From positions 1-25,477 of IMG/VR virus record IMGVR_UViG_3300044512_000031: 25,477 bases of DNA; one strand, given 5' to 3'. Below, in pieces: positions 2,538-23,531 of the stretch. The notes beneath the pieces are model-generated. The model was not told the DNA's origin, did no database searches, and saw only the letters and a list, made by a program, of their open reading frames with translations. Both the position numbers and the translations under genes were made by a program. Each line of letters begins with the position of its first letter. Positions within the stretch are counted from its first letter, which is position 1. The stretch is from a virus (lineage: Duplodnaviria; Caudoviricetes).

Positions 2538-5500
2538 ATGCAAATGTTTCAAGGATTTAAACCAGAAGGCATGAAGAAGATACAGCAACGTATGGGTTAT
2601 ACTGGCCCTGCTGATCAGTTCCAATCTTATTTGCAAGCTAATCCAGATAAGCAGATGATGATGAATAGCTACGTAAACAAAGCTATGAACATGGCTAGTG
2701 GTGGTTATGTACGTAACTTTCAAGCTGGTGGTTTTAATCTGCCACAAGGTTTTAATCCTGAATCGTATTTAGCATCTAATCCAGATGTAAAAGCAGCTAT
2801 TGATGCAGGTCAGTTTACTAGTGCAGCTGATCACTTTCAAAAGTTTGGTGGTGGTGAAGACAGACAAGATGTAACAGGTTTTTCTGTACCTACAAATTTT
2901 ACTCCTCAAAACTATATTAATCCAGATATCAATCCAGATTTAGCAGTTGATTTTGAGCAAAGAAAACAAGCTGATCCTAATCTTACAGCCCAACAGTACG
3001 CAGTAGAACATTACACAAGGTTTGGCGGTGGTGAAGATAGACCGGGAGTTACAACAGTTCCGGGTTTACCTGATGGACCAGCAGATGCTAGAGATGAAGT
3101 AACGCAACCACCACCAGAAGATGGTACAACAGATCCACAACCTATACAACCTGATCCTAACCGTACATTTGCTACATTTCAAGATTTACAGACTGCACCT
3201 AGAGAAAGTTTAACTCCAGAACAAGTGCACATACTTAACTTTTATTCTAATACTCCCGAACAACAAGAAGCTATAAATGCAATGCCACAATTTAGTAATG
3301 CACAGCTACCTGTTGGACAGTATCAACCGGGTGTAAGAACAGCTGCACCACCACCACCACAAGAAGGAGCAGGTACAGGTACAGGAGCAGGAGCAGGTGA
3401 TACCATATCAGGAGCTACAGGTGTAGGTTCTGTAAATGGTGCAGTGGTGTTATCAAATAGACCAGATGTAGCACAAGCTATAGCAGATGGTAATACTTTT
3501 GGTGTAGACCCAGCTACATTAGAAGGACTAACTGATGAGCAGAAAAATCAAAGATTAGCAGAAGCATGGTTTAATACATTTGGTAATAAAGAAGGTGTTA
3601 ATCCTAATACTGGTTTATCTAATACACCTAGTAATTTTGATAATGTGTCAGATCAAGTAATTATAGACTACCTAGATCAGTACCCAGATTTACGTGAGGC
3701 ATTTGGTGGACCTCCTTACAGTCAGGCCACACTAGCACAAGCAAGATCGCACTATGCTGACTTTGGTAGAAAAGAAATAGCAGAAGGTGGTAGACCCAGA
3801 TTAGTGCAATTTGATTTATCACCTGCACAGCTAGAGGCATTTAGGTATTCTAATGATGAGTATCAAAATCTTACACCTGAAGAGTTACGTAGAACATACA
3901 TAGCTATTGGTGGTGCATCAGGTGCTACTAACTTTGATAGAAATGCACAGATATTAAATGACGCAGAGATGCAGATATATAGAGATAATAATCCTGATCT
4001 TGCAAACTTAAGTGATTTTGAATTAAGGCAACACTTTATACAGTTTGGTAGACAGGAGATGCTACAGGGTACTAGAACTAAAATAGATGCACTTGTACCA
4101 CCAACATCTCCATATGCAGGTTTAACTAGCATAGCAGATATAAGTGCATCTAGATTAGAAACTCCTGTACTAGCAGATGGTACACGTTTAGATGCACAGA
4201 CAATAGCAGGTCCAGATGGTACAATTCCTACAGGTACAGAGGTTAGTACGACAGCTAGTCAATTAAGTGCAACAGATCCAGTAGCTGTTGCTGGTACTGC
4301 ACCTGCACCATCAGGTGCTACAGCTACACAAGAAGGTACTTCATTAGCACAGGTAACAGACACAACTAAAACAGCAACTGGTGTTCAAGATATAACTGAT
4401 GCTACAACAGGACGTACTATGAGCCTGACTAAAGCTAAACCAGATGCAGCACAACAAACTACCTCTGCTGTGACAGGACAGGCTGCTGAGACAGGTACAG
4501 GTATAGCAATTGATCCTAGCACACAAGTACAACGTGCAGGTATAACAACAGCAGAAACAGTAGCTCCTGTTGCAGAAGCATCTGAAGCTGCTAAGTTTGT
4601 AGAACAGATAGTTGCACAGTCTGCTAACCCTACTGCTTCTGCTACTGTAGCTGGACAACTTAGTAACTTACTAACTGACTTTGATGCATCTAATCCTCCA
4701 TCATGGGCTGCTGGTGCAATGAGAGCTGCTACTGCTGAGATGGTTAGGCGTGGATTAGGTTCCTCATCTATAGCTGGACAGGCTATTGTACAGGCAGCAA
4801 TGGAAGCAGCCTTACCTATAGCACAGGCAGATGCACAGATACAGGCACAGTTTGAAGGACAGAACTTATCTAACAGGCAACAGATGGCTGTATTTTATGC
4901 ACAACAACGTGCTAGTTTTATGGGTCAGGAATTTGATCAGGGTTTCCAATCTCGTGTAACTAATGCAGCAAGAGTTGCAGACATTGCAGATAAGAACTTT
5001 ACCGCACAACAACAGGTACAGCTAGAGAATAGTAACATTGTAAACACAATGAACCTAAGTAACTTAAGTAATAGACAAGCTGTACAGATGGCAGAGATTG
5101 CATCACTAGCACAGTTAGATATATCAAACCTTAATAACAGACAACAGGCAGCTGTAATGGAAGCACAAGCATTCTTGCAGAAAGATCTAACTGATGTAAG
5201 TAATGATCAGCAGACTACACTATTTAATGCACAGCAACGTATACAGTCTCTGTTCACTGACAGTGCAGCAGACAATGCACGTAAGCAGTTTAATGCTTCA
5301 TCTGATAATCAGTCAAATCAATTCTTTGCTAACTTAGCTACACAGACTAGCCAGTTTAATGACGCACAAAAGAATGCTATAGCACAGTTTAATGCAGGTC
5401 AACAAGGTACTGTCAGTAGATTTAATGCGGAAATAGAAAACCAACGTGATCAGTTTAATGCACAGAATAGACTAGTCATCGATCAGGCAAATGCGGTATG

Positions 5501-5810
5501 GCGTAGGCAGATAGCTACAGCAGATACAGCTGCACAGAATCGTACTAACGAATTAAATGCTTCAGCTTTACTAGACATATCTAATACAGCTTACAGTGAT
5601 CTATGGCAACAGTATTCAGATATGATTGAATTTGCGTATACCTCTGCTGAGAATGAGCTAGATAGAATAGCATCACTAGCAGAGGCTAATATAAACGCTG
5701 ATACACGTAGAGATATAGCTGATGAACAGAGTAGCACTGCTGCAGGATCAGCAATAGGTAATTTAGTTGGTACACTAGGTGCTGCTTTTATAGGTGCAAA
5801 AATTAAATAG
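2538..5810 (+). CDS. Putative internal virion/ejection protein (1090 aa) with N-terminal YLxxNPDV-type repeats
   Basis: Q/A/N-rich C-terminal half with recurring QFNA motifs, terminal Gly/Ala hydrophobic helix (GSAIGNLVGTLGAAFIG), AxGG motifs near the N terminus, and position in the structural block before two other large ORFs. Confidence 0.65.
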   Translation: MQMFQGFKPEGMKKIQQRMGYTGPADQFQSYLQANPDKQMMMNSYVNKAMNMASGGYVRNFQAGGFNLPQGFNPESYLASNPDVKAAIDAGQFTSAADHFQKFGGGEDRQDVTGFSVPTNFTPQNYINPDINPDLAVDFEQRKQADPNLTAQQYAVEHYTRFGGGEDRPGVTTVPGLPDGPADARDEVTQPPPEDGTTDPQPIQPDPNRTFATFQDLQTAPRESLTPEQVHILNFYSNTPEQQEAINAMPQFSNAQLPVGQYQPGVRTAAPPPPQEGAGTGTGAGAGDTISGATGVGSVNGAVVLSNRPDVAQAIADGNTFGVDPATLEGLTDEQKNQRLAEAWFNTFGNKEGVNPNTGLSNTPSNFDNVSDQVIIDYLDQYPDLREAFGGPPYSQATLAQARSHYADFGRKEIAEGGRPRLVQFDLSPAQLEAFRYSNDEYQNLTPEELRRTYIAIGGASGATNFDRNAQILNDAEMQIYRDNNPDLANLSDFELRQHFIQFGRQEMLQGTRTKIDALVPPTSPYAGLTSIADISASRLETPVLADGTRLDAQTIAGPDGTIPTGTEVSTTASQLSATDPVAVAGTAPAPSGATATQEGTSLAQVTDTTKTATGVQDITDATTGRTMSLTKAKPDAAQQTTSAVTGQAAETGTGIAIDPSTQVQRAGITTAETVAPVAEASEAAKFVEQIVAQSANPTASATVAGQLSNLLTDFDASNPPSWAAGAMRAATAEMVRRGLGSSSIAGQAIVQAAMEAALPIAQADAQIQAQFEGQNLSNRQQMAVFYAQQRASFMGQEFDQGFQSRVTNAARVADIADKNFTAQQQVQLENSNIVNTMNLSNLSNRQAVQMAEIASLAQLDISNLNNRQQAAVMEAQAFLQKDLTDVSNDQQTTLFNAQQRIQSLFTDSAADNARKQFNASSDNQSNQFFANLATQTSQFNDAQKNAIAQFNAGQQGTVSRFNAEIENQRDQFNAQNRLVIDQANAVWRRQIATADTAAQNRTNELNASALLDISNTAYSDLWQQYSDMIEFAYTSAENELDRIASLAEANINADTRRDIADEQSSTAAGSAIGNLVGTLGAAFIGAKIK
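2751..4076 (+). repeat. Protein-level repeat array, about 5-6 copies of YxxxNPD(V/L)...H(F/Y)xxFGxxE
   Basis: Copies at about 2751-2864, 2898-3041, 3447-3597, 3666-3797 and 3975-4076, plus one degenerate copy between the last two. Copies 1 and 2 both end in FGGGEDR with near-identical DNA (tttggtggtggtgaagacaga / tttggcggtggtgaagataga). Confidence 0.8.
3345..3398 (+). repeat. Low-complexity linker (CCA)n plus GGAGCA/GGTACA hexamer repeats
   Basis: Encodes APPPPPQEGAGTGTGAGAG. Confidence 0.7.
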
Positions 5811-5823
5811 GGATACATACATT

Positions 5824-6027
5824 ATGAATACTAATTATACAACAGATGTTTACAAAAAAATAATGAAAACCATGAATGCTCCTAAACCTGAAGTTAAGAG
5901 TAAAGGATTGCTGACACGTAACATGGATACTAAGAAAACATCTACATCACAAGCTGAACCTATAGCTATAATAAAAGAGTATGTAAGTGCTATACAAGAA
6001 GAGAGAGGTAACATAGGCAATGGTTGA
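5824..6027 (+). CDS. Hypothetical protein (about 67 aa)
   Basis: The track start at 5794 overlaps the upstream gene. ATG 5824 follows AGGGA and is in frame. Overlaps the start of the next ORF. Confidence 0.65.
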   Translation: MNTNYTTDVYKKIMKTMNAPKPEVKSKGLLTRNMDTKKTSTSQAEPIAIIKEYVSAIQEERGNIGNG

Positions 6028-6511
6028 TGGACCTAGATTTGATGCACCTATTCCGGGCATGTCATTAACTACAGAGGTAGGCAACAGACCTTGGCAACAA
6101 CCGCCACGTTTTGTTGACACTAAAGATGTAGCAGAATATTATGTAGAAAAATTAGCTGAAGATAATTTTGCTGATATGTTAGTTGATGTAGCAGAGTCAG
6201 GCATTCCACTAACTACAATAGCTAATACAATACAAATGAATAGCGTAATGCAGGGCATACATAGTGTAGACTCTGGTATACTTGCATTACCTGTGATTAT
6301 GGAGATGATGTTAATTACAGTAGAAGCTGCTGGTATAGAGTATAATAGTGGTATGGATGATACTACATCTGATAAACCAATGAGTACCGAATTACTACTT
6401 TCTAAGTTAAAAGATTTTAGTACAGAGCAAATGGATGAAGATCCAAATGATATGCCAATACCAGACATAGAAACAGATACTGGTGGTGGGTTAATGAGCA
6501 GGAGACAATAA
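6020..6511 (+). CDS. Conserved-type acidic phage structural-module protein (163 aa)
   Basis: RBS GAGAGG. N-terminal FDAPIPGMSLT...RPWQQPP motif of a kind seen in marine podoviruses. Its stop codon overlaps the next ATG (TAATG). Confidence 0.75.
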   Translation: MVDGPRFDAPIPGMSLTTEVGNRPWQQPPRFVDTKDVAEYYVEKLAEDNFADMLVDVAESGIPLTTIANTIQMNSVMQGIHSVDSGILALPVIMEMMLITVEAAGIEYNSGMDDTTSDKPMSTELLLSKLKDFSTEQMDEDPNDMPIPDIETDTGGGLMSRRQ

Positions 6512-8049
6512 TGGGATTTGCATCAGGATTACTAGCAGGTATTGCTACAGGAGCAGAAAAAGTTATATCAGCAGATATTGAAGCTGGAAAGTTAGAAACA
6601 AGACAGCTTGCAAAGCTACGTGCTGAAAGAACAATACAACGACAGGATAAACGTGATGCAGAGGTGCGTGAAAATCTAGCCAAGACACAAAAACTAATAG
6701 CTCAAATAGGCGAAGGTGGTATACCTATTGTACGGCACTATATTGAAAAGGGTGGACTACCATATGCTGAAGAAGCTACTGCTAAATTGATAGCATATTC
6801 AAAACAAAATGGCATGACTCCTGCTGATTATGCTGGTATTGTAGTTGGTGAGGGAGATTTACCTACGCCTATGCAGTTAGCAGAGATGGCTACTCCAACA
6901 TCTAGACCTATAGCTATACCTGAATCTTCTGCACGAGGATGGAGTAGAATGTTTGGTATAGGTGGTGAGGACGCTATACGTAGGCAATCAGATAGTTTGA
7001 TACAAGCCGCTGGTTCTACTACTACTAAACCTACTGAATTAGGTGTGTCTATTTTAACAGATGAAAACAGAAGTAAGTTAAGTAAAGTTCCAGAAATACA
7101 ATCTATAAAGGAACAACAGCAGATGATACTAAGAAGATCATTAGATATATCAAAACAATTGCAAACTGCAACAGGAAAAGAAAGAGATAGTCTATTAGAA
7201 CAACAAAGTAAAAATAATGCTTTGATAGATTCTATGCGTAAAGCTAGTGACAGATTTTCAAGTGAAGGTAGGTTTAGTTTTCAAAGTCGTTTTCTAAGAC
7301 TTATGGATGAAGGTAAACCTGCTGAAGCAGAAGAGGTAAGAAAATCAGCAGCACTATTTTTTTCGTCTACTAGTAACTCAAAGACAGTAGGAAACTCTGG
7401 CGGTTTTACGCTTCAGATGATGAAAAGTTTAGAACAGGACGCTGCTGATGAGTTAGGTTATGATAGTAAAAATCCTAATAAAAGTATATATATATATAAA
7501 CCTGATGCTAGTGGTAAAAATGTTAGGGAGATACTAAAAGGACCAGAAGCTACTAAGTATTATCAGGCTTCCCTACTAGAAAAATATAAAAATTTACAAA
7601 ATAATTTAGTTATTGATGGTAGGGATCAAAATTCAGTAACAGCATATAGTATGCTACAAGAAAAAATAAAAAATCTACGTAGTATATTAACATTGCCTAC
7701 AGATGCAGCTAATAATAATAATAATACTATTACTAATGTAGGTAAAATAGATAGAAGTCAAGTAGATGATTTAGGTCCATCAGCAGGTAGAAGTGCACCT
7801 GTTGTAAAATCAGATGTTCCTAAATCAGCTAATCCTGCACAACCAACAGTATCTAGTAAAGTAAATGCTACTATGAAACAATTTGAAACCAATCCTAAAT
7901 TATTAGCTGAGTATACATCAGCAGCAATGAAAGCAGGTAGTAATCCACAACTACGAAATGAACTTGTACTAAACATAAAAAAGGATACAGGTCTTACAGC
8001 TAATGAGGCATTTCAAGTATTTAAATTACTTCAGGGGATGGGGCAATAG
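6511..8049 (+). CDS. Putative internal virion/ejection protein (512 aa)
   Basis: Gly-rich hydrophobic N terminus (MGFASGLLAGIATG), helical/coiled-coil composition, translationally coupled to the upstream ORF. Confidence 0.55.
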   Translation: MGFASGLLAGIATGAEKVISADIEAGKLETRQLAKLRAERTIQRQDKRDAEVRENLAKTQKLIAQIGEGGIPIVRHYIEKGGLPYAEEATAKLIAYSKQNGMTPADYAGIVVGEGDLPTPMQLAEMATPTSRPIAIPESSARGWSRMFGIGGEDAIRRQSDSLIQAAGSTTTKPTELGVSILTDENRSKLSKVPEIQSIKEQQQMILRRSLDISKQLQTATGKERDSLLEQQSKNNALIDSMRKASDRFSSEGRFSFQSRFLRLMDEGKPAEAEEVRKSAALFFSSTSNSKTVGNSGGFTLQMMKSLEQDAADELGYDSKNPNKSIYIYKPDASGKNVREILKGPEATKYYQASLLEKYKNLQNNLVIDGRDQNSVTAYSMLQEKIKNLRSILTLPTDAANNNNNTITNVGKIDRSQVDDLGPSAGRSAPVVKSDVPKSANPAQPTVSSKVNATMKQFETNPKLLAEYTSAAMKAGSNPQLRNELVLNIKKDTGLTANEAFQVFKLLQGMGQ

Positions 8050-8050
8050 T

Positions 8051-11000
8051 ATGTCTTTAGAAGCAGAGGTACTTGAAAATAGCATGAATACTTTAAATCT
8101 TACTCCCCTTAACAGGGTAGAAGAGGAAGAAGTAGAAGAGCAACAATCTCTCCCTGCTACAGATACTAGCTTAAACTTAACACCTTTACAAAAGGTAGAT
8201 GAGCCAGAAGAAAATAAAATATCTAAACTAGAATATATTAGTAATCCAGAAATAATGGATAAGATTAGACGTTTTGATAAAAGTAAATATGGTGAAGAAG
8301 GTGGTCAACAAGAAGGTGAAACTAACGAAGAATACTTTGAAAGATTTTTAACATTTAAAAGAGCTATAGAACAGAATACTATAGATCAATCGGGCATGAT
8401 TGATTGGATACGTACTGCTTCTCCTGAAGAGAGAGATGAATTTTTAGATGTATATATAGATGTAGAAAATAACCTACCTAATTTTTATCAGGAGGGTGGT
8501 GGTAATACTGGCAGTGCTATGCTTGATTACTTATTCTATACTGTATCTGAACCTATGAATTTAATAGGTGGTTTATTTGGTAAATTTTTTGGTAAGGCTG
8601 CAACTGCTAGTGTTAAAGAAACATTAATGAAGTATGGTAGAGAGGCAGCACTAAAAGAAGCTAAAAAAATTGGATTAAAAAGAGGTATTAAAATAGGTGC
8701 TGTAACTGAAGGTGCATTGCAAGCTGGTCAGGATATAGGAATGCAACGTATTGAACAGGCTAATTTAGATTTTGAAGATGTAGATATAGATTTAGGTAGA
8801 AGTGCTATTGTTGGGGGAGTTGGTGCAGCGGCTGGTGCTTTAGGCTTTGGGCTACAACAGCGAGGTGACTTTGCCGATTTGTCTGAGCGTATGGCATTTA
8901 GAGAAAAGGTTAAGAAAACTAAAGCTGATGAAATAGCAGCAGAAAAAGTAGCCAAACAACAATCCGATAGTGTATTAAAGGAAGCAGGAGAAGAAGCACC
9001 TGATGAAATATTTGATCCAGTAGAAGCAAAAGAATATCTAGAGATACTAGGCAATGTAGATAATATAGATTTAGTTGAATCTAAAGTAAGAACAGATATT
9101 CTTAATAGGATTAATAAAGTAGCACTGACTATCTTTGATGACTATACAGCTAGAGGCACAACACCTCCGGGTATAGAGGCGAACATGAAAGCTAATGAGG
9201 TTGTGCGTAATATCATACGTTCTACTGAAGCACAGGAATTAGATCCAGACCTATTAGATAAAGCAATATCCAAAGCAGGTTTAACTCCTGAAATATTTGA
9301 GGCTATAGTAGGCGTAACGTATAGTGATGCTGGTAAATCACTAGCTACACTAGCTCCAATGGGGCAGAGATTAAAGAAACTAAGAGAGCTACATCCTGAA
9401 TTTGTAAAGAGACTAGATGAGTTAGCAGGTGTGCAAGCTAGTTCTACTAATATCTTTGGTTATATCTGGGATGGTATAAGACGTTTAGACAGAGAAGGTA
9501 GAGCACTAGCTGTTACAAGATTTAGTACTACAGCAGGTAACTTAGCCACTCTCGCGGCAACACAAACTATGCAGGTAGGTTTTAATGCAGTAGAAAGTAC
9601 ACTGTACCACTTTGGTAAGTCTGCCAAATCTATATTAGAAGGCACTGCCTCTGTACAAGGTACAAAGAAAGGCATTAAAGATTTAGTAAAGGATACATTT
9701 GGAACTATAGCATACCTAGATGATCCACAGTTAGCTTCTGAGATGACAGAGTATATGCTACGTACTAATCCTGCATTAGCAAGAACTATAGACAGATCTC
9801 TTGGTGAAATAGGTGATGAAGGACTCAGTAAATTTACACGTATGGCTAACACACTAAACTTAATACAGGATGTGTATGCACGTAAGGCAGTATTCTCTGC
9901 TTCAGTAGACAAACATTTAAGAAGAGCAGGGCTAGACTTTGATACAGTACAAGCACAAGGTAAAGAGCTACCTATTAGTGTATTAAAAAATTCACAGAGG
10001 GATGCATTACAAGCTACCTTTGCTGCTATGCCACGTACTATAGCACAAGGAGGTGGTCGCACTGAGGATATAGCCCACACTTTTATTAAGTTTGTAGAGA
10101 AGTTACCTTTCGTACCTGTATTGGGTACTGGAGAACTTCCTTATGCTAGGTTTATGGTTAATGCAATGGCACACCAGCTATCCTTTAGTCCTGTAGGTGG
10201 TGTTAATGCTGCTGCAACCTTTACTAACGCTATGTATAGAAGGTTTGGTAGACAAATGAATGACGCTACCACCCAAGCAGATTTTGCTAAAGCCAGAACA
10301 CAATTTTCTAAGTCTGTAGTTGGTACGGCAGGATTGTATGCAGCTTTTAAATATCGTATGGAGAATCAAGATATAGAACCACATGAAATTAGAGGGCAGG
10401 ATGGTAAACCTAGTGATGTTAGAAGGTTCTGGCCTTTTGCTCCTATACTAACATTAGCTGATGTGTTCGTTAAGATTAAACTAGATAAATTTGATGAGAT
10501 TAGTTGGAGTAAAACAAAAGAAAATATAATAGGTACTAGATTCAGAATGGGTCAGTACGGTGGTGCTGTAGATGACATGATGGAGATCATGTACAAAGGT
10601 GTTACTGAAGGTATTGAAGCTGAAGAACTGGCAGATAAGTTTGGTGCGTATACAGGAGAGATGGGATCTAGATTTACTACACCTGCTAAGATAGTCACAG
10701 ATGCGTTAGCAATCTTTGATGATGAACAAGCAGTAGTAAGAGATGCTTCACAGGTAGAGGGTGTTACACCAGAAGAAAGATTCTTTGATGCAGCTAAGAA
10801 GAAGCTATACAACAACATGCCATTCTTACAGAAGTCCTTGCCTGTAAGAGAACAAACAACTAGAGAGGGAGATCGTTACTTACAAAGTCCTGTAATGAGA
10901 TTATTCTTTGGTATATCTTCAGTAGAACGTAGAAGTAAAATAGAAAACGAATTACTTAAACATGGCTTAGAAGATTACACACTAACACCACGTACAGGAG

Positions 11001-11377
11001 ACAAGAGAGCATCAGCCTTTGTAAATAAATACTTAGGTTCTTTTGTTGAGAAGGATCTAGGAGAGATAGTTGAATCTAAATACTATAAGGATGCAACTAA
11101 GAATGAACAGAAGCTAATAATAAATGATCAATTAGCGGAGGCTAAGAAGTTAGCAGAGATGCTAGGTAGGATGGACAGTAGAGATGTACAAGGTTCACGA
11201 GGTCCAACACCATTTACTAGAGGTGATTGGATTAAACTATCAGCACAGCAACGTGCTATAGCAGACGAAATGTATAAAGATAAATTTGGCAGATCGGTAG
11301 TAGAACAACAAAGGGAAGAACCCTCTGTTGATCACTTTTCTGAAGCTGTTGAAATTGCAAAACTGCTATCTCGTTAA
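8051..11377 (+). CDS. Large putative internal virion protein (about 1108 aa)
   Basis: ATG 8051 lies 2 nt after the upstream stop and is preferred to the track start at 8003. Gly/Ala-rich hydrophobic segments (AIVGGVGAAAGALGFG). Last gene of the structural block, the position of the largest ejection protein in T7-like podoviruses. Confidence 0.65.
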   Translation: MSLEAEVLENSMNTLNLTPLNRVEEEEVEEQQSLPATDTSLNLTPLQKVDEPEENKISKLEYISNPEIMDKIRRFDKSKYGEEGGQQEGETNEEYFERFLTFKRAIEQNTIDQSGMIDWIRTASPEERDEFLDVYIDVENNLPNFYQEGGGNTGSAMLDYLFYTVSEPMNLIGGLFGKFFGKAATASVKETLMKYGREAALKEAKKIGLKRGIKIGAVTEGALQAGQDIGMQRIEQANLDFEDVDIDLGRSAIVGGVGAAAGALGFGLQQRGDFADLSERMAFREKVKKTKADEIAAEKVAKQQSDSVLKEAGEEAPDEIFDPVEAKEYLEILGNVDNIDLVESKVRTDILNRINKVALTIFDDYTARGTTPPGIEANMKANEVVRNIIRSTEAQELDPDLLDKAISKAGLTPEIFEAIVGVTYSDAGKSLATLAPMGQRLKKLRELHPEFVKRLDELAGVQASSTNIFGYIWDGIRRLDREGRALAVTRFSTTAGNLATLAATQTMQVGFNAVESTLYHFGKSAKSILEGTASVQGTKKGIKDLVKDTFGTIAYLDDPQLASEMTEYMLRTNPALARTIDRSLGEIGDEGLSKFTRMANTLNLIQDVYARKAVFSASVDKHLRRAGLDFDTVQAQGKELPISVLKNSQRDALQATFAAMPRTIAQGGGRTEDIAHTFIKFVEKLPFVPVLGTGELPYARFMVNAMAHQLSFSPVGGVNAAATFTNAMYRRFGRQMNDATTQADFAKARTQFSKSVVGTAGLYAAFKYRMENQDIEPHEIRGQDGKPSDVRRFWPFAPILTLADVFVKIKLDKFDEISWSKTKENIIGTRFRMGQYGGAVDDMMEIMYKGVTEGIEAEELADKFGAYTGEMGSRFTTPAKIVTDALAIFDDEQAVVRDASQVEGVTPEERFFDAAKKKLYNNMPFLQKSLPVREQTTREGDRYLQSPVMRLFFGISSVERRSKIENELLKHGLEDYTLTPRTGDKRASAFVNKYLGSFVEKDLGEIVESKYYKDATKNEQKLIINDQLAEAKKLAEMLGRMDSRDVQGSRGPTPFTRGDWIKLSAQQRAIADEMYKDKFGRSVVEQQREEPSVDHFSEAVEIAKLLSR

Positions 11378-11757
11378 CGCTTATCACCACTACCCTGTAT
11401 CGTACCTTTCTTTAACCTAGCTTCTAGCTTATCTTTATTCTGTTTAGCTATAACACCCAACGACATGTCAAGATCAGATGCCAGTGCTGCACAGTACCAC
11501 AGCACATCACCTATCTCTGATGCTAGTTGTTCCTTCCAATCGTGAGGCATGGTATCTTCACCATCTCTAATAAGTTTCTTTACCTTATTAGCTACCTCAC
11601 CTGCTTCCCCAACCAAACCTAAAGCTGGATATGTAATCCTATATTCTCGTGGATATATAGCTGTTGTCTGTGCGATCTTTTGATAGTCATTAAAATCTAA
11701 CATTGCATATCTCTCCTTTAACCAGTTAAGTGCCGACTGTTCTAAGTTGCTCTTCAT
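11374..11757 (-). CDS. mazG: MazG-like nucleoside triphosphate pyrophosphohydrolase
   Basis: FNDYQ...YPALGLVGEAGEVANKVKK...EIGDVLWYCAALA...NKDKL motif set. An alternative start at 11703 also has an AAGGAG RBS. Confidence 0.9.
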   Translation of the reverse strand: MKSNLEQSALNWLKERYAMLDFNDYQKIAQTTAIYPREYRITYPALGLVGEAGEVANKVKKLIRDGEDTMPHDWKEQLASEIGDVLWYCAALASDLDMSLGVIAKQNKDKLEARLKKGTIQGSGDKR

Positions 11758-11935
11758 GCTTCACCTTTCGTAGTGTCTCAAAGTAGGCCTTGTTATAACC
11801 ACGTTCCCACTCTCTAGATTGCATGGAGTTTTCTTTGTATGGGTTGGTATACTTTGCTCCCCTATAGAAAGCGTCGTAACCTCTACGCCACTGTATTTTT
11901 AGTGGTGCATCATTCTTGTTTAGTCCTCTACGCAT
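11726..11935 (-). CDS. Small basic protein with an Rmf-like motif
   Basis: RGYDAFYRG...NPY...REWERGY resembles the ribosome modulation factor pattern RGYxAGxxG...CPY...WLxGW. RBS GGGAG. Confidence 0.55.
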   Translation of the reverse strand: MRRGLNKNDAPLKIQWRRGYDAFYRGAKYTNPYKENSMQSREWERGYNKAYFETLRKVKHEEQLRTVGT

Positions 11936-14842: not shown

Positions 14843-15204
14843 TATGCTGATCCTTTCGTTTTAGTGTTAAAGGTTAAGTGTATTACATTACCATCTATGC
14901 TAGTTACTTCTGCCTGAACAGGTTCAGTTATATGTGTCTTTGGTAACGTGTCATTCTCGTAGTCTGTTACGTAATTACTTATGTCACTTCTTAGTACTTC
15001 ATCATACTCCATCATAGGTACAGAAGCACAAATCATTTTAGTCAAATGCATCAGCTTTGTAAAGTCCTCTCCTGTAAGTTTGTGTTTGTCATCCCACATT
15101 ATACATATATCTACATCACCATTCCACTGACCATCTACCATATGAGGACGCAATCGTATTGCAAAATCATTAGGATCAAACTCAGGTGTTATTTCTTCTG
15201 TCAT
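14842..15204 (-). CDS. Hypothetical protein (120 aa)
   Basis: Translationally coupled at both ends (ATGA and TAATG). RBS GAGGAG. Confidence 0.8.
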   Translation of the reverse strand: MTEEITPEFDPNDFAIRLRPHMVDGQWNGDVDICIMWDDKHKLTGEDFTKLMHLTKMICASVPMMEYDEVLRSDISNYVTDYENDTLPKTHITEPVQAEVTSIDGNVIHLTFNTKTKGSA

Positions 15205-15656
15205 ACGATTCTCCTCTTAGTTCCTGTAAAGGCTATAAACTTTTTGTGTTTGTTCTTGCCTTTTTCTTTTAACCATTCTTCAGGTATAACCCTGTTACTA
15301 TACAGTAAGCCATACTTATAACACCATTCTCCATACGTACTCTTCGCTCCTTTACGTAGCTTTCTTCTACTGTTTTCAAAGACAAATCTTATATCCAGTT
15401 TAGGATGTTGTCTCTTAATTGCGAGATGCTTACGCCTATCAGCAGCAGTAAACATCCCCTTAGACTCTATGATTATACCATTATCCAGTACAAAATCAGG
15501 AGTATAGGTACGGTAGGCTAGATCTTCCCACTCTATCTTAAGGCTTTCATATGTAAACTTTACTTTTAAAACCTTAAGCTCATCTGCGAGTTTCTTTTCT
15601 AAGCCTGACCTGTACCCATACTTCCTTGCATGAGAGAACTTTGTATAGTTCATCAC
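15201..15656 (-). CDS. Endonuclease I (T7 gp3-like Holliday junction resolvase)
   Basis: YRSGLE...YTPDF.L.NGIIIESKG.F...DRRKHL..K.QHP.LDIRFVF...IPEEWL. Confidence 0.92.
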   Translation of the reverse strand: MMNYTKFSHARKYGYRSGLEKKLADELKVLKVKFTYESLKIEWEDLAYRTYTPDFVLDNGIIIESKGMFTAADRRKHLAIKRQHPKLDIRFVFENSRRKLRKGAKSTYGEWCYKYGLLYSNRVIPEEWLKEKGKNKHKKFIAFTGTKRRIV

Positions 15657-15659
15657 GTG

Positions 15660-15887
15660 TTATGAAGCTCTGCCATGCCAGAATGAAAATGCACCAGAGC
15701 CTAGTTGATTTACACCGTAGCCTAGTGTCTTTAGCTCCTCACGTATCGTAGAGTCTATGTCTTTCCTAGCCTCTAATGCAGCACGTAAGGAAGCAGTACG
15801 CTTCTCTTTGTACTCACGTTTCATTTCAGATAGCTGTGATTCAGCTTCTCTGATTGCACTTTCTAATTCTGCTAAGTCTGTGTCCAT
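15660..15887 (-). CDS. Small coiled-coil protein (75 aa)
   Basis: LAELESAIREAESQLSEMKREY heptads. RBS AAGGGG. Confidence 0.75.
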   Translation of the reverse strand: MDTDLAELESAIREAESQLSEMKREYKEKRTASLRAALEARKDIDSTIREELKTLGYGVNQLGSGAFSFWHGRAS

Positions 15888-16024
15888 TCTTCTAACCCCT
15901 TTCTGTTTTCATTCTTACCATATGCATCGTAGTGATGCTTACCATTACGAAACTGTCCATTCTCTACAGCTTCCTTAACGTCTGGATTTGCCTCAAGATA
16001 ACTTGCTTCAGGAAAATCAGTCAT
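15872..16024 (-). CDS. 50-aa stand-alone YLxxNPDV-repeat protein, missing from the ORF track
   Basis: Hand translation: MTDFPEASYLEANPDVKEAVENGQFRNGKHHYDAYGKNENRKGLEEWTQT*. RBS AAGGAG, ATGA overlap with the exonuclease stop. 17 of 38 positions identical, ungapped, to repeat 1 of ORF 2538-5810. Confidence 0.85.
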   Translation of the reverse strand: MTDFPEASYLEANPDVKEAVENGQFRNGKHHYDAYGKNENRKGLEEWTQT

Positions 16025-16887
16025 GCTTTACTCTCCTTCTCTATATGCACGTAAGAAACTATCTTAGGTTCCTTTGCACGTGACTTCAATGCTGGCAGTT
16101 CTTTCAACTTAGGCCAACAGGTTTTGCGGAAAGAACACCAGCTACACTCACTGCCTAGTATTTTATTTCCTGTTGGTTTACCATTAAAGGTTTCATCTAC
16201 TGCATCAAAACATCTCTTGAACTCATTATCATTAACAGTCTTAACTGTCTTGTTAATATGGTACATTTCTTCCATCATGTCAATGCCTTTAGCTGGTACA
16301 TATTTAAAGCTACCATTTGCTTTATTAACTACCCACCAACCACCGGGCTTAAGACCTGATGCTGTAGCGTACCCTGCAAGTTGACCCACATAACCAAACG
16401 AGTCATGTGCTTTTAACGTAGCAAAGTCTTTGAACTTATTTCTATAGGACCAATCAGATGCAGACTTAATATCATCTACAGCCCCATCAATCTCTATATC
16501 ATAAGTGCCTTTAATCTTAGTGTCTTGTTCAGGTAGGTCTAGCTCTACTGTATCAGCATCTCCATACTCTACCTTCGCTTCAGTCAATAGTCCTTTGAAT
16601 ACTGCCTCTACTATATCTCCTAACATCATATTCATTACAAAGTTACTGGGTAGGGGCTGTGCTTTCTCAGGCTGGTTCTTTTGAAACCAGAGTTGGCAAG
16701 AGGGTCTGCCTATATTAGACATCCTCAAGCCGAACTCACCACGCTTGTTGCCCCCACCAAACTGACGAGCTAGTGCATCCATGACATCCTTACCAATACG
16801 TTCTATTGTATCTTCAGATAACACAGCTTTACCATTAGCTGCATCTGTCATGTACTGCGCTAGTGCCAGTTCAGCAGGATGATTCAT
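16021..16887 (-). CDS. PD-(D/E)XK (RecB/Cas4-like) exonuclease
   Basis: RMSNIGRPSCQLW, G...E, GTYD...DDIKSAS, GYVGQLAGY, and C-terminal CSWCSFRKTCW. Confidence 0.8.
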   Translation of the reverse strand: MNHPAELALAQYMTDAANGKAVLSEDTIERIGKDVMDALARQFGGGNKRGEFGLRMSNIGRPSCQLWFQKNQPEKAQPLPSNFVMNMMLGDIVEAVFKGLLTEAKVEYGDADTVELDLPEQDTKIKGTYDIEIDGAVDDIKSASDWSYRNKFKDFATLKAHDSFGYVGQLAGYATASGLKPGGWWVVNKANGSFKYVPAKGIDMMEEMYHINKTVKTVNDNEFKRCFDAVDETFNGKPTGNKILGSECSWCSFRKTCWPKLKELPALKSRAKEPKIVSYVHIEKESKA

Positions 16888-17817: not shown

Positions 17818-17846
17818 GTTATACTACGCAACGTCCTTAATGTCAA
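17818..17846 (-). promoter_or_regulatory. sigma70-type promoter
   Basis: On the - strand: TTGACA (17846-17841), 17-nt spacer TTAAGGACGTTGCGTAG, TATAAC (17823-17818), just upstream of the RBS of ORF 17780. Confidence 0.75.
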
Positions 17847-19866
17847 GCCAATTATTACCTATTTTAGATTCTAATAATAAAGGTACATTAATATCAACAC
17901 CTAGATGTTGTTTAATACATGTATCTAAATTAGTATTACAATCTTCAATAGCTGTTAAGACCTGTTCTTCTTCTTCTGGATGTACATCAATAACAATACT
18001 ATCATGTACTGTATTGACAACACAGGACTTTTTACCTTTCAATAAAGTCTCTATCCATAGTAATGCTACAGGTACAATATCTGCTGTAGCAAATGATTGC
18101 ACAGGATAGTTCTTGATCTGTGTAAAGTAACTGATCCTACCACGTGCATTTCTTTGTACATCAGGAAAAGAAAACTCCCTACCTGATGGTGTTGTAATCT
18201 TGCCTGTGTTAAGTGCTTCTTTGGCAAGAGTGTCATGCCAGTTAGCAATACCCTTGTACTTCTCATTGAAGTGGGTGTAGTAGGTAGCTTCTGCTTTAGA
18301 TCTACCATATCCACTAGCCCCATATAGAGGAGCAAAGGTATGTGCTTTGGCATCTTGTCTGGACATAACCTGCCCAGCATCTGTGATGATCTTGGCTGTG
18401 TAGGAATGCACATCAAAACCATCTGTTACTTCCCTGATAGCTACAGGATCTTGAGATAGGTACGCAGCTACACGAAACTCTAGCTGTGCAAAGTCAGCTT
18501 CAAGTATCTTGCCTCCATTGAACCTCGATACGAATACACGCTTGACAGGGAACGTACCTCCACGTGGCATGTTCTGCATGTTAGGCTCTTTCCCACTAAG
18601 CCTACCAGTAGATGTCATGTGTTGGTTCAGTCTTACGTGTAACTTACCATCGGCTTTCACATTGTTAGCTATCCCACCAACGAATGAGGATAGGTAAGTA
18701 TCCAATGCAGATAGCCTTTGTACCTTCTCAAGAAACTCTAGTGCCTCAGTCATGCCTTTAGTTCTCGCTGAGTTTGCCAGTAGCTCTAGATTCTTTCTGT
18801 TAGTAGAGAACCCATTAGCTGTAGCCCACTTAGCATTGGGAGCATTAAACTTTAAACCACCAACAATACTAGTAGGAATAACATGATACCCATTGCCATC
18901 GCACGAGTTACACTTTGACAGTTTGGCGTATGGTGTTCCATCCTTTTTCTCCTTTCTTATTTTACCTGACCCATAGCAATCGGCACACCGCTTTACATGT
19001 GACTTGTACACTATATCAGTTTCTTCCCTGACCAGTTGTTTGAAAGCAGTCTGCCCCATATACGGATCGAACTTATTTATCCAGACTGTTTTATCTACAG
19101 GCTTACGACTATATATCAGAGTGGATAGTTGCTCTGGACTGCTTAAGTTTAATGGTACATCTCCCATTAATTCCCTTACTTTAGTTTCTAAGTATGATAG
19201 TACCTCCTTTCTTTCTTCTTCAAATGCAATACGTACACCTTCCAGTGCAGTAATGTCTACGTTAAAACCTCTCGTGTAGATCTTAGCTAATGCAATAACC
19301 ATCTCATTAGTTAGCTGCACTACATTGTGCATACCACTAGCATCTGTACCTACTAGCTTGATACGCAATTCATGTGCCAGTTGTTGTGTTGCATGTAGGT
19401 CAGCACTTAGATACTCAGCTAACTCAGCATGTGGTACGTCACGTACTGATACACCCTGCTTGAGATAAGCCTTGAGTGTGTCCTGCTTCTTAGTGTCCAG
19501 ATCGTAGCGTTGTGCACATGCTTCCAATGACAGAGGTTGCTTGACACCACGTAGTATCAGGTACTCCATCATCATTGTGTCAAACACTGATCCATTGTAG
19601 GTAAAGCCTGACTCCCATAACCACACTAAGTCATGGCCTATGTTGTGACCAATCAGTACAGTAGCCTGATCTAACTTGCTCTGTACAATAGCATGACCAT
19701 TAGGAGTAGCCTCTACTTCACTGTGATCAAACGTAACGATGTCTTCATTGCCATGATCATCTAGCATACCCACCATAACTAATGTGTTCTCTGGCTCGAA
19801 AGGATCTAGCTGTAGCTTACCTTCACGTTTGATTACTGTGTTTTCTACATCAAGAGTCAGTTTCAC
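17824..19866 (-). CDS. polA: Family A DNA polymerase with 3'-5' exonuclease and DnaJ-type zinc-finger insertion
   Basis: Exonuclease motifs LDVE, GHNIGHD, FDTM, YLSAD. Polymerase motifs TGRLS, NMQN, ADFAQLEFR, RQDAKAHTFAPLYG, NYPVQS, VHDS. Insertion CADCYGSG...CNSCDGNG. GTG start. Confidence 0.95.
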   Translation of the reverse strand: MKLTLDVENTVIKREGKLQLDPFEPENTLVMVGMLDDHGNEDIVTFDHSEVEATPNGHAIVQSKLDQATVLIGHNIGHDLVWLWESGFTYNGSVFDTMMMEYLILRGVKQPLSLEACAQRYDLDTKKQDTLKAYLKQGVSVRDVPHAELAEYLSADLHATQQLAHELRIKLVGTDASGMHNVVQLTNEMVIALAKIYTRGFNVDITALEGVRIAFEEERKEVLSYLETKVRELMGDVPLNLSSPEQLSTLIYSRKPVDKTVWINKFDPYMGQTAFKQLVREETDIVYKSHVKRCADCYGSGKIRKEKKDGTPYAKLSKCNSCDGNGYHVIPTSIVGGLKFNAPNAKWATANGFSTNRKNLELLANSARTKGMTEALEFLEKVQRLSALDTYLSSFVGGIANNVKADGKLHVRLNQHMTSTGRLSGKEPNMQNMPRGGTFPVKRVFVSRFNGGKILEADFAQLEFRVAAYLSQDPVAIREVTDGFDVHSYTAKIITDAGQVMSRQDAKAHTFAPLYGASGYGRSKAEATYYTHFNEKYKGIANWHDTLAKEALNTGKITTPSGREFSFPDVQRNARGRISYFTQIKNYPVQSFATADIVPVALLWIETLLKGKKSCVVNTVHDSIVIDVHPEEEEQVLTAIEDCNTNLDTCIKQHLGVDINVPLLLESKIGNNWLDIKDVA

Positions 19867-21782: not shown

Positions 21783-22541
21783 TCATAGTTCATTAAGAGC
21801 GTCCATATCTTTCTTGTGTCTATACTTTATATCGTCCTGTAGACGTAGGACTTTTACATTATCAACTACACTTCTTAACTCCTTTGCTATTGTTAATGTT
21901 TTCTTTGATGCATCAGGATCTAATGCTACTACTGCTGTAGAGAACTGCGCTAGGTATTGCCTCTGTTCATTGGACATGGAGGTTCCCATTAAAGCTACCC
22001 CTGTATGTCGATCTCCTCCAACAACTGCTGCACTAACGCAATCCTCTACAACAACAGCTACCTTACCACAACCATGTACATAAGGCAACCCACTATTTCC
22101 ATATCGCTTCCACTTAGGTATTCGCTTACCCAATGCCCTACCTGTAGCGTCAACTGTAATACTATTGTGTACTACAGGAAACACAACACGATGCTCACGT
22201 ATGTCATACATCAGACCATGCTTTCCTACATCAAGACCCCACTCACTTGCATACTCATAGACTGGGGCATCAGTAGGTACAGGCACTGGCACTACATACA
22301 TAGGCATGTCAAAGCTAGTGTCCTTTACCTTTACTATCTTGTTTAGCTTGTCCTGTATAGCAGTGGCAGACATGCTCACCCTGTTAGCACCACTGCTATT
22401 GCATCCTGCCTTGTAACAGTTCCACATTAGCTGTCCATTGTTGTTGGTTACTGTGAATGTCTTGCGTCCTTTGCATTCAGGACAATCCATCCTGACTGTT
22501 TCAGACTCTTGTATGTCTAGGTTTTGGATGAAGTTGTACAT
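21783..22541 (-). CDS. DNA primase (zinc-binding domain plus TOPRIM)
   Basis: CPEC...CYKAGC, RVVFP, GRAL, KWKRY, VVVED, ALDPD. Confidence 0.88.
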   Translation of the reverse strand: MYNFIQNLDIQESETVRMDCPECKGRKTFTVTNNNGQLMWNCYKAGCNSSGANRVSMSATAIQDKLNKIVKVKDTSFDMPMYVVPVPVPTDAPVYEYASEWGLDVGKHGLMYDIREHRVVFPVVHNSITVDATGRALGKRIPKWKRYGNSGLPYVHGCGKVAVVVEDCVSAAVVGGDRHTGVALMGTSMSNEQRQYLAQFSTAVVALDPDASKKTLTIAKELRSVVDNVKVLRLQDDIKYRHKKDMDALNEL

Positions 22542-22957
22542 TTCTGATGCTCCTGTAAATATTTTATTGCTCTTTTAAAGGTATCAATATCATTGTTAAA
22601 ATTACCTAAGTCTCTATTACATTTTCCACAAAGCCAACCTCTAAACGTACCAGTGTCGTGACAGTGATCTAACACCCATGATTTTTTACTAGCACCTTCG
22701 GCTGCCTCTTCTTTATTACGCAAACATATAGGACATACGTAGTCATCATCAGGCATACCGTAAATACTACGTAACTTCTCTACCTCCTTCTGAAGTTTGG
22801 ATGTGCATTTTTTACATTCATTTCTAACTTTGTATAACTTATCTGGTGAAGAGGGAAAAAAGGACACAGGTAAGTATTCTTTACACTTGGTGCATGTTTT
22901 TCCTTTATCTCCCTCTAGTTTAATTAGATAACTAGGAGTGAATAAATCTCCTTGCAT
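22517..22957 (-). CDS. Endonuclease VII-family (His-Me finger) nuclease, probable homing endonuclease
   Basis: CPIC...VLDHCHDTGTFRGWLCGKCNRDLG, with N-terminal CTKC...CKKC. Confidence 0.85.
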   Translation of the reverse strand: MQGDLFTPSYLIKLEGDKGKTCTKCKEYLPVSFFPSSPDKLYKVRNECKKCTSKLQKEVEKLRSIYGMPDDDYVCPICLRNKEEAAEGASKKSWVLDHCHDTGTFRGWLCGKCNRDLGNFNNDIDTFKRAIKYLQEHQKCTTSSKT

Positions 22958-22958
22958 G

Positions 22959-23531
22959 TTACCCCACTTTCTTTTCTAGTTCATAATAAAAATCTGCAAC
23001 TTGGTATAGCTCCTTAAGTGTGGCTGAACTTTTCATGGCATTAGCTTTAAAAGAAACAACCACCACGTTATCTTTATGATAACCTTTGTTATTATCTATT
23101 CTATCTATAGACATACTAAATTCATTTAGACCTTTACCAAATGAAAATTTAGTTCCAAACACAGGACATTTTAAATCTTTTGGTATCAATTCCAGTAGTT
23201 CTTCAGTTGTTAAACTGCAATTTTTTTCTATCTTTTTACCTCTTGCTTGGCATCCAAGTATTCTTTTATTTAAAAATGAGTAGGTTAAATCAGAGTGTTT
23301 TTTAATGTTACGTATCTTTTCCAGCCGTCTGGCATTTACTTCTTCTCCATGTTCTGCGTAGTATTGTTTCCTGTATTCTAATAACCTTTCTCTGTTTTTC
23401 TCATAGTGCTTTTTAGTATGCAACATTACTTTTTCTTTGTTGTTTTTCTTGTATTCTTTACCGTATGCTAATATACGCTCTCTATTTTTAGCATAATATT
23501 TTTTATGATATTCTACTCTATCAAATGACAT
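22959..23531 (-). CDS. HNH-type endonuclease, probable homing endonuclease
   Basis: CPVFG...SIDRIDNNKGYHKDNVVVVSFKANAMK, with N-terminal basic helical repeats YxxNRERxLxY. Confidence 0.75.
   Translation of the reverse strand: MSFDRVEYHKKYYAKNRERILAYGKEYKKNNKEKVMLHTKKHYEKNRERLLEYRKQYYAEHGEEVNARRLEKIRNIKKHSDLTYSFLNKRILGCQARGKKIEKNCSLTTEELLELIPKDLKCPVFGTKFSFGKGLNEFSMSIDRIDNNKGYHKDNVVVVSFKANAMKSSATLKELYQVADFYYELEKKVG

Follow-up and report, generated by a model that had tools for sequence, protein, structure and literature searches.

A small repeat module carried twice by an HMO-2011-type phage: an array on a putative ejection protein and a conserved 50-residue solo gene

Why a phage should carry the same small domain both as a row of repeats in a large protein that is probably ejected into the host and as a free-standing gene among its replication genes is the question raised by the locus considered here. 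The window, that is the whole stretch of 25,477 nucleotides that was analysed, can be recognised from its sequence as a fragment of an HMO-2011-type phage in the sense of PMC9038755. Its polymerase (17824-19866) contains the DnaJ insertion, found by profile search as PF00684 at residues 289-328 and with both motifs visible in the sequence, and is 65% identical to the polymerases of HMO-2011, CRP-1 and CRP-345; capsid and terminase genes lie beyond the window. Two further features of the window are recorded here for themselves. On the minus strand at 22517-23531, between integrase and primase, endonuclease VII-like and HNH-like genes stand in tandem at a site where relatives usually have one of the two, and a 69-residue ORF at 11726-11935 (minus strand), kept in relatives, gives a weak match to ribosome modulation factor (E 5e-4, under the cut-off).

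The free-standing gene, called here the solo gene, lies in the following arrangement:

15201..15656, minus strand, endonuclease I gene, which closes the insertion site of the solo gene
15660..15887, minus strand, 75-residue coiled-coil-like ORF downstream of the solo gene, which it overlaps by 16 nt
15872..16024, minus strand, solo gene, 50 residues: one complete 42-residue module of three predicted helices (residues 3-44) and a short tail
16021..16887, minus strand, Cas4-like/PD-(D/E)XK exonuclease directly upstream of the solo gene (phrog_1990, E 8e-33)
16033..16038, minus strand, ribosome-binding site AAGGAG, 8 nt before the solo-gene ATG; a GGAG-type site is kept in relatives

The first-pass annotation described this as an unannotated gene with a good ribosome-binding site and with ATGA coupling to the exonuclease gene. 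Translation of the minus strand at 15872-16024 returns the 50-residue protein that it gave, and the AAGGAG precedes the ATG by 8 nt. The coupling is true of this genome, where the exonuclease stop overlaps the solo start, but is not conserved: only three of nine relatives checked share it, and in the other six the solo gene overlaps the exonuclease end by 17 nt. To call the gene unannotated is fair insofar as relatives are labelled hypothetical protein, yet gene callers do call the ORF and its exact sequence is recorded on 85 contigs. Pfam, PHROGs and NCBIfam hold no match for the protein, nor was one found among isolated phages, and in the Atlas it falls in unnamed clusters only. Two 770-residue members of its cluster, tape-measure-like and without the module, were set aside as a clustering artefact.

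So short an ORF, whose translation is predicted from sequence signals, might be suspected of being a non-functional fragment. Selection makes this barely credible. The solo protein was found at 45 loci, of which 39 are orthologues (77-100% identity), and all 39 are intact, 48-50 residues long, preceded by a GGAG-type site and placed right after the exonuclease. Across 23 distinct DNA sequences dN/dS is 0.08 (codons 3-44), variable columns fall 9/5/31 at codon positions 1/2/3, and four of the five other reading frames are closed in every one of the 23, while the ribosome-binding site is kept across two different overlap geometries. The solo gene is real and under purifying selection, having passed both the frameshift and the dN/dS check, and as far as sequences can tell the fragment reading is largely refuted. 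Frameshifted versions in P0009, P0010 and P0202, one record each, are taken as probable sequencing errors. Metatranscriptome contigs of one study span the gene in three of four runs and are absent in the fourth, although contigs of this kind cannot show transcription; a promoter scan was uninformative, with 9 sites against 5.3 +/- 2.3 in shuffles. The protein is probably cytoplasmic, because it has no hydrophobic stretch. In relatives that lack the solo gene the insertion site is shorter than 50 nt or holds just the 75-residue ORF. That ORF is itself patchy, being present at 21 of 66 outgroup junctions and missing in L037-L039.

The second occurrence of the module is in the structural operon:

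2538..5810, plus strand, 1090-residue putative ejection protein, orthologue of HMO-2011 phage1322_25 (hypothetical)
2748..2873, plus strand, array repeat 1, the canonical module (HMM E 9e-16)
2895..3050, plus strand, array repeat 2, with a variable loop insertion (HMM E 9e-4)
3441..3600 (end approximate), plus strand, degenerate repeat with a long insertion, its His replaced here; detected by HMM in orthologues
3657..3791, plus strand, array repeat, invariant Arg lost (HMM E 2e-7)
3966..4073, plus strand, weak last repeat, invariant Arg lost (HMM E 0.05)
5794..11377, plus strand, four hypothetical genes (77, 163, 512 and 1124 residues) at the end of the structural operon, without family matches

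An ungapped match had been reported between the solo protein and this larger one, and it stands: 17 of 38 residues are identical to the translation of 2751-2864 (plus strand), which is residues 72-109 of the 1090-residue protein (BLASTP E 1e-9). The local score of 95 exceeds the maximum of 50 reached in 1000 shuffles against the 1090-residue protein and that of 54 in 200 shuffles against all six frames of the window. At the DNA level the solo gene and repeat 1 agree at only 65 of 114 positions, so the two do not stem from a recent duplication. The array itself has four copies detectable by HMM and a degenerate one; only repeat 1 is canonical. It lies in the variable middle of the protein, between a conserved N-terminal part of 62 residues and a conserved Gln/Asn/Ala-rich C-terminal part of 400 residues. 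Within the N-terminal domain, window positions 2625-2648 (plus strand) encode a half-motif similar to the module's first two helices; it is present also in orthologues without the array and could have seeded capture. The array is a mosaic (window 2748-3050 compared with L208 and L201), as repeats 1-2 are 97% identical to those of a relative that is only 81% identical C-terminally, and 50% identical to those of a relative that is 97% identical in the C-terminal part.

That the 1090-residue protein is ejected is probable, judging from gene order. Its gene heads a block of five that closes the structural operon after the tail genes, and this block is likely an ejection cassette; a complete relative has a portal and adaptor of SU10 type. 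The occurrence of the module on phrog_598 DNA-ejection proteins and tape-measure proteins elsewhere lends indirect support. The ejection role proposed at first pass is thus favoured by context, but not by direct homology, as the protein has no match in PHROG, Pfam, NCBIfam or PDB sequences. The Atlas lists P22_gp7 for it at 0.85 on 18% of members, which we take as a lead only, and places a viral 518-residue cluster with DUF4214 near its C-terminal part. No virion proteomics bearing on it was found in PMC10410586, PMC6256558 and PMC6918029.

Solo gene and array were both present in all 11 contigs that cover both sites, namely the window itself and 10 contigs from the 18 small-gene records that were searched. 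At 105 exonuclease-endonuclease junctions the solo gene was found in 39, with exonucleases 76-99% identical, and was missing from 66, with exonucleases at 63-72%; its carriers form one clade on the exonuclease tree (39 of 77 rows). The array is found in 11 of 135 distinct full-length orthologues of the 1090-residue protein, again as one clade (100/100 in a tree of 67 rows). The module is absent throughout 46 outgroup records, of which 8 are at least 90% complete, in a scan in which three positive controls matched and one truncated clade member did not. The co-occurrence that was to be checked is therefore perfect, but it amounts to one gain in one clade. Among 39 other module-bearing virus records (8 near complete) none has a solo gene, every full match there lying in a frame of at least 129 residues. 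Two distant HMO-type fragments (37% and 48% complete) have the module in the orthologue, an exonuclease that overlaps the endonuclease and no gene between them. There are other lineages (P0034, L483, L489, L492) in which an orthologue of the 1090-residue protein has acquired the module; the contigs of P0034 and L492, which have arrays, are too short to enter the solo-gene count. Short proteins and genome loci yielded no further clean single-module gene within reach of the search seeds, more distant copies being possible. As a general arrangement, the proposed two-stage system, in which the domain is injected at infection and supplied again during replication, is not borne out; within this clade it is possible.

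Across ten genomes the solo protein keeps pace with the replication enzymes and not with the array. Mean identity is 88% for the solo protein, 83% for the exonuclease, 82% for RNR and 88% for the endonuclease, against 62% for repeat 1 and 57% for the array. Solo identity follows RNR and the exonuclease (Spearman 0.75 and 0.68) rather than repeat 1 or the array (0.14 and 0.19), and genomes with an identical solo protein can differ in repeat 1 down to 67% identity. The solo gene has a dN/dS of 0.11 (8 sequences), compared with 0.43 in repeat 1 (9 sequences). This lack of covariation argues against a cognate competitor of relatives' arrays, so the suggestion that the solo protein blocks the ejection protein of superinfecting relatives is not upheld. 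The solo gene had also been called a copy of the repeat. Homology to repeat 1 is clear, but descent from it is unproven, since the solo protein reaches scores of up to 135 with bacterial copies, in a search that was seeded with it, compared with 116 for the best array copy and 95 for the phage's own repeat. A single clade of solo and array copies, tested with array repeats 1-2 where these have 40-44 residues and with the 40 other copies that scored best, was neither rejected nor shown (p-AU 0.88), as 42 columns cannot settle descent. A first one-clade test (p 7e-111) was invalid because near-copies of array repeats had been left outside the group. Prediction of a complex between the solo module and array repeats 1-2 scored 0.00, which is no evidence either way.

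The module belongs to a large family. At E up to 0.001, a profile built from 38 copies matches 17,007 protein representatives, with 1 to 28 copies per protein; no match was found in Pfam, PHROG or NCBIfam, and none under E 0.1 among PDB sequences. In the sequence libraries and searches used here the module thus appears undescribed, despite at least 17,000 representatives, and we found no paper on the motif in the literature within our search coverage, which did not extend to subscription journals and bioRxiv supplements. Weak matches to a mycobacterial hemophore, DUF5338 and others were rejected, as they cover the first helix pair only and come under or near the cut-off through repetition. AlphaFold2 predicts helices at 4-10, 12-19 and 26-34 of the solo module (pLDDT 86), and four tandem bacterial copies are predicted as one rigid unit (pLDDT 96.6, pTM 0.88). 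Fold searches gave a best Z of 2.5 for the monomer, to ribbon-helix-helix-like antitoxins (rmsd 3.4 over 38 aligned residues), and of 2.1 for the four-repeat array, and Foldseek returned nothing under E 2 for the monomer; such a missing match does not prove a new fold. Six residues, Y9, D15, H31, G36, E39 and R41, are conserved at 99-100% in 488 aligned copies, an invariance that is partly circular as the copies were picked by profile, and the solo protein keeps all six.

From recall, the first-pass annotation had placed the motif in RTX/S-layer-like proteins and glycosyltransferases, and partner scan and profile matches bear this out. The scan covered 92 of 101 ORFs from 79 genome loci and found 15 glycosyltransferases, 16 SAM methyltransferases, 5 PhyH dioxygenases, 3 GSCFA proteins, 1 SPASM protein and 14 secreted-type proteins (RTX, proteases, FG-GAP, beta-helix), with 38 lacking a match. 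The methyltransferases, PhyH and GSCFA proteins would be tailoring enzymes of polysaccharide. Of 150 profile matches the best 40 are for the most part RTX, Calx-beta, cadherin, Ig and protease proteins, with two glycosyltransferases, and the best viral structure matches are giant-virus glycosyltransferases (best E 2e-4), followed by weaker glycan enzymes and a dTDP-sugar reductase (E 0.057). In a SAR116 genome the module occurs twice in an RTX-repeat protein with a metalloprotease-like motif. Where the module protein is not itself a recognised glycan enzyme, a polysaccharide gene was found among the scanned neighbours at 9 of 38 loci and at none of the other 29, with crude ORF picking and no background control. 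Three short bacterial proteins consist almost wholly of two modules (L432:4866-5312, L449:4764-5315, L434:4905-5267), and those of L432 and L449 directly follow a three-module WbsX-type glycosyltransferase.

In viruses outside the clade the module is almost exclusively a part of virion proteins whose kind passes into the host. Among 27 module ORFs scanned there were five phrog_598 DNA-ejection proteins (L498, L499, L501, L521, L525), three tape measures (L481, L482, L524), one virion structural protein and one weak tape-measure match; a host-like methyltransferase in a provirus record and 16 ORFs without a match made up the rest. A family of 20 members of 800-1090 residues (L044, L495-L519, L523) was checked in one member, where the gene stands behind one for a virion structural protein. 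With the module masked, the 53 module ORFs form 21 clusters, and capture must therefore have happened many times; it spans at least four unrelated families of proteins that enter the host at infection. It may be the larger finding that unrelated podo- and siphoviruses carry the module time and again as a passenger on their ejected virion proteins. Distant HMO-type phages (L483:71-1231, L500, L503) have an extra ORF of 346-386 residues with one N-terminal module just before the orthologue of the 1090-residue protein. HMO-2011 and phiM6 themselves are without the module.

What, then, might the two copies do? Our preferred reading, tentative and drawn from domain partners, is that the module is an envelope-glycan-binding unit and that the phage uses the solo copy to disturb synthesis of the host's surface glycan. 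The 42-residue unit would be a mobile envelope-glycan-recognition module acquired from bacteria, with a surface polysaccharide of O-antigen or capsule type, or its lipid-linked precursor, as ligand. An envelope glycan is favoured because nothing else would be encountered alike by polysaccharide enzymes in the cytoplasm, by secreted surface proteins and by virion proteins on extrusion. The array on the 1090-residue protein would grip this glycan during extrusion at infection. The solo copy would be a cytoplasmic product, expressed along with the replication genes, and could occupy the same kind of site on nascent polysaccharide and compete with the host's module-tagged transferases and tailoring enzymes; without a hydrophobic stretch, action on nascent glycan or competition with tagged host enzymes is what would be expected of it. 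Any glycan partner would be the host's, as no glycosyltransferase was found among 43 ORFs scanned in a complete relative. A thinned or altered surface glycan might then reduce adsorption of competing phage and let fewer progeny be lost to cell debris. Array and solo protein would have a class of ligand in common and would not bind one another, nor need either descend from the other, and the contrast between a conserved solo protein (88%) and a variable array (57-62%) is as expected if the ligand inside the cell is fixed and glycans outside vary. Several points weigh against the glycan reading. The invariant Tyr, Asp, His, Gly, Glu and Arg may be purely structural, and only 9 of the 38 loci of the crude, uncontrolled scan had a polysaccharide gene nearby. 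As tape-measure and ejection proteins end in the periplasm, membrane or cytoplasm, one ligand must be reachable in several compartments, and other lineages have the module on ejected proteins without any solo gene. The boldest form of the proposal, a glycan-recognition domain of unsolved fold common to bacteria, giant viruses and phages, which unrelated phages repeatedly attach to injected proteins (gp7-type, tape measures, large internal proteins) for a hold on the host envelope, with the solo protein as a dominant-negative that jams assembly of the host surface glycan, is rather improbable.

The same partners could also be explained, though we think it unlikely, if the module were a protein-docking tag, the copies of which stack on each other or on a shared partner and so assemble complexes of glycan enzymes and layers of surface proteins; the solo protein would then cap the array before packaging or break up complexes of module-tagged host enzymes. 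The rigid unit predicted for four bacterial repeats implies, at the level of a model, that repeats have packing faces, the dTDP-sugar reductase extends the module to enzymes with soluble substrates, and the two-module proteins of L432 and L449 adjoin three-module glycosyltransferases. Against docking stand an unchanged solo protein beside differing repeat-1 sequences, uncorrelated solo and array identities in ten genomes, and a gene in the replication operon, away from the structural genes; single-module ejection proteins elsewhere do without a solo partner. A small, soluble, strongly conserved protein from the middle operon is likewise what an anti-defence decoy or small-molecule sponge would look like, the idea of the first-pass annotation, injected as an array and supplied again during replication. 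Repeated capture by host-entering proteins would fit an early conflict, as argued for polyvalent proteins (PMC5512222), and the weaker constraint on repeat 1 (0.43 vs 0.11) would be in keeping with it. Set against this, the cellular partners are glycan enzymes and secreted proteins and not signalling or defence proteins, arrays on secreted proteins lie outside the cell, far from nucleotide signals, and a module in the normal protein set of likely hosts (SAR116) makes a poor foreign pattern; moreover, none of the 39 other module-bearing virus records supplies a solo gene. We consider a decoy or sponge less likely than the glycan reading, and quite improbable in itself.

The array and the solo module may finally be two unlinked acquisitions by the clade's ancestor, the latter acting elsewhere, for example on the flanking nucleases or a host enzyme, in which case they would occur together through shared descent only. 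Each is a single gain on the trees, the solo gene tracks the replication genes, bacterial copies outscore any array copy (135 vs 116, in the solo-seeded search), and the module was also acquired by orthologues of the 1090-residue protein in other lineages (P0034, L483, L489 and L492). But the module is rare among these orthologues (11 of 135) and the solo gene occurs in the very same clade only, a coincidence that is unlikely without a link; both parts are retained in every clade member that covers both sites (11 of 11), and a single clade of solo and array copies is not rejected (p-AU 0.88). Independence of the two is also rather improbable.

A passenger domain on an injected protein, together with a solo version of it, is a known theme; it is the module itself that appears undescribed within the scope of the present searches. 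One close parallel is provided by phage polyvalent proteins, domains of which also occur solo (Iyer et al. 2017, PMC5512222). As there, a domain is found here both on its own and within a large virion protein that is probably injected, and the same domain has been captured repeatedly by unrelated elements. Polyvalent proteins differ in carrying several biochemically different, mostly enzymatic, domains, whereas no family match was found in the 1090-residue protein or in 18 related virion proteins; the module is an envelope-associated repeat of the host rather than a conflict enzyme, and its solo gene lies in the replication operon of the same genome. Ejection proteins of podoviruses offer a second comparison. 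P22 gp7-type proteins are classed as outer-membrane ejection proteins and gp14-16 are those of T7 (PMC8954989), while SU10 has five, gp20-24 (PMC9509320). The five-gene block at the end of the structural operon resembles these sets, and the module rides on phrog_598 proteins, the P22 gp7 type, elsewhere, but the 1090-residue protein has no sequence match to any ejection protein of P22, SU10 or T7. Internal virion proteins diverge fast and carry passenger domains, of which the known ones, unlike the module, are enzymes (PMC4819975); that paper gives no IVP-D for HMO-2011.

The SLH domain is a short three-helix unit, repeated at protein ends, that anchors surface proteins to cell-wall polysaccharide. 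The module is likewise a short repeated unit of three predicted helices, but it has no match to Pfam SLH, is found largely in Gram-negative bacteria, giant viruses and phages, and comes in 1 to 28 copies. DUF4214 (PF13946) is proposed to hold Psh of Pseudomonas putida on O-antigen, the binding being modelled (bioRxiv 10.64898/2026.09.02.748959). It too is a small helical module on RTX, serralysin, cadherin, Ig and S-layer proteins and is present in phage virion-type proteins, and one such protein (L495:2858-6115) carries both. DUF4214 is however about 72 residues long compared with 42, the module is common on cytoplasmic glycan enzymes as well, and none of 38 module copies matched PF13946 at E up to 10, so that the range of partners is a shared behaviour and not membership; as such it is a parallel for the glycan reading. 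The sponges Acb2, Tad1, Tad2 and Acb4 are, like the solo protein, small soluble phage proteins expressed during infection; they were not among the sequence or fold matches of the module, a missing match being no exclusion, and the module differs from them in that its cellular relatives are envelope proteins.

That ejection and tape-measure proteins have taken up the module again and again hints at a further, undescribed stage in the delivery of the genome across the host envelope. The solo gene provides a natural, conserved 50-residue isolate of the domain and thus the easiest handle for its structure and ligand, from which annotation would follow in one stroke for glycosyltransferases, S-layer-like proteins and virion proteins in their thousands. 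If the boldest form of the glycan reading is true, the solo gene would be an enzyme-free form, of 50 residues, of receptor conversion or superinfection exclusion. Given how abundant HMO-2011-type phages are in the ocean (PMC9038755), a receptor-altering gene in one of their clades would bear on host range.
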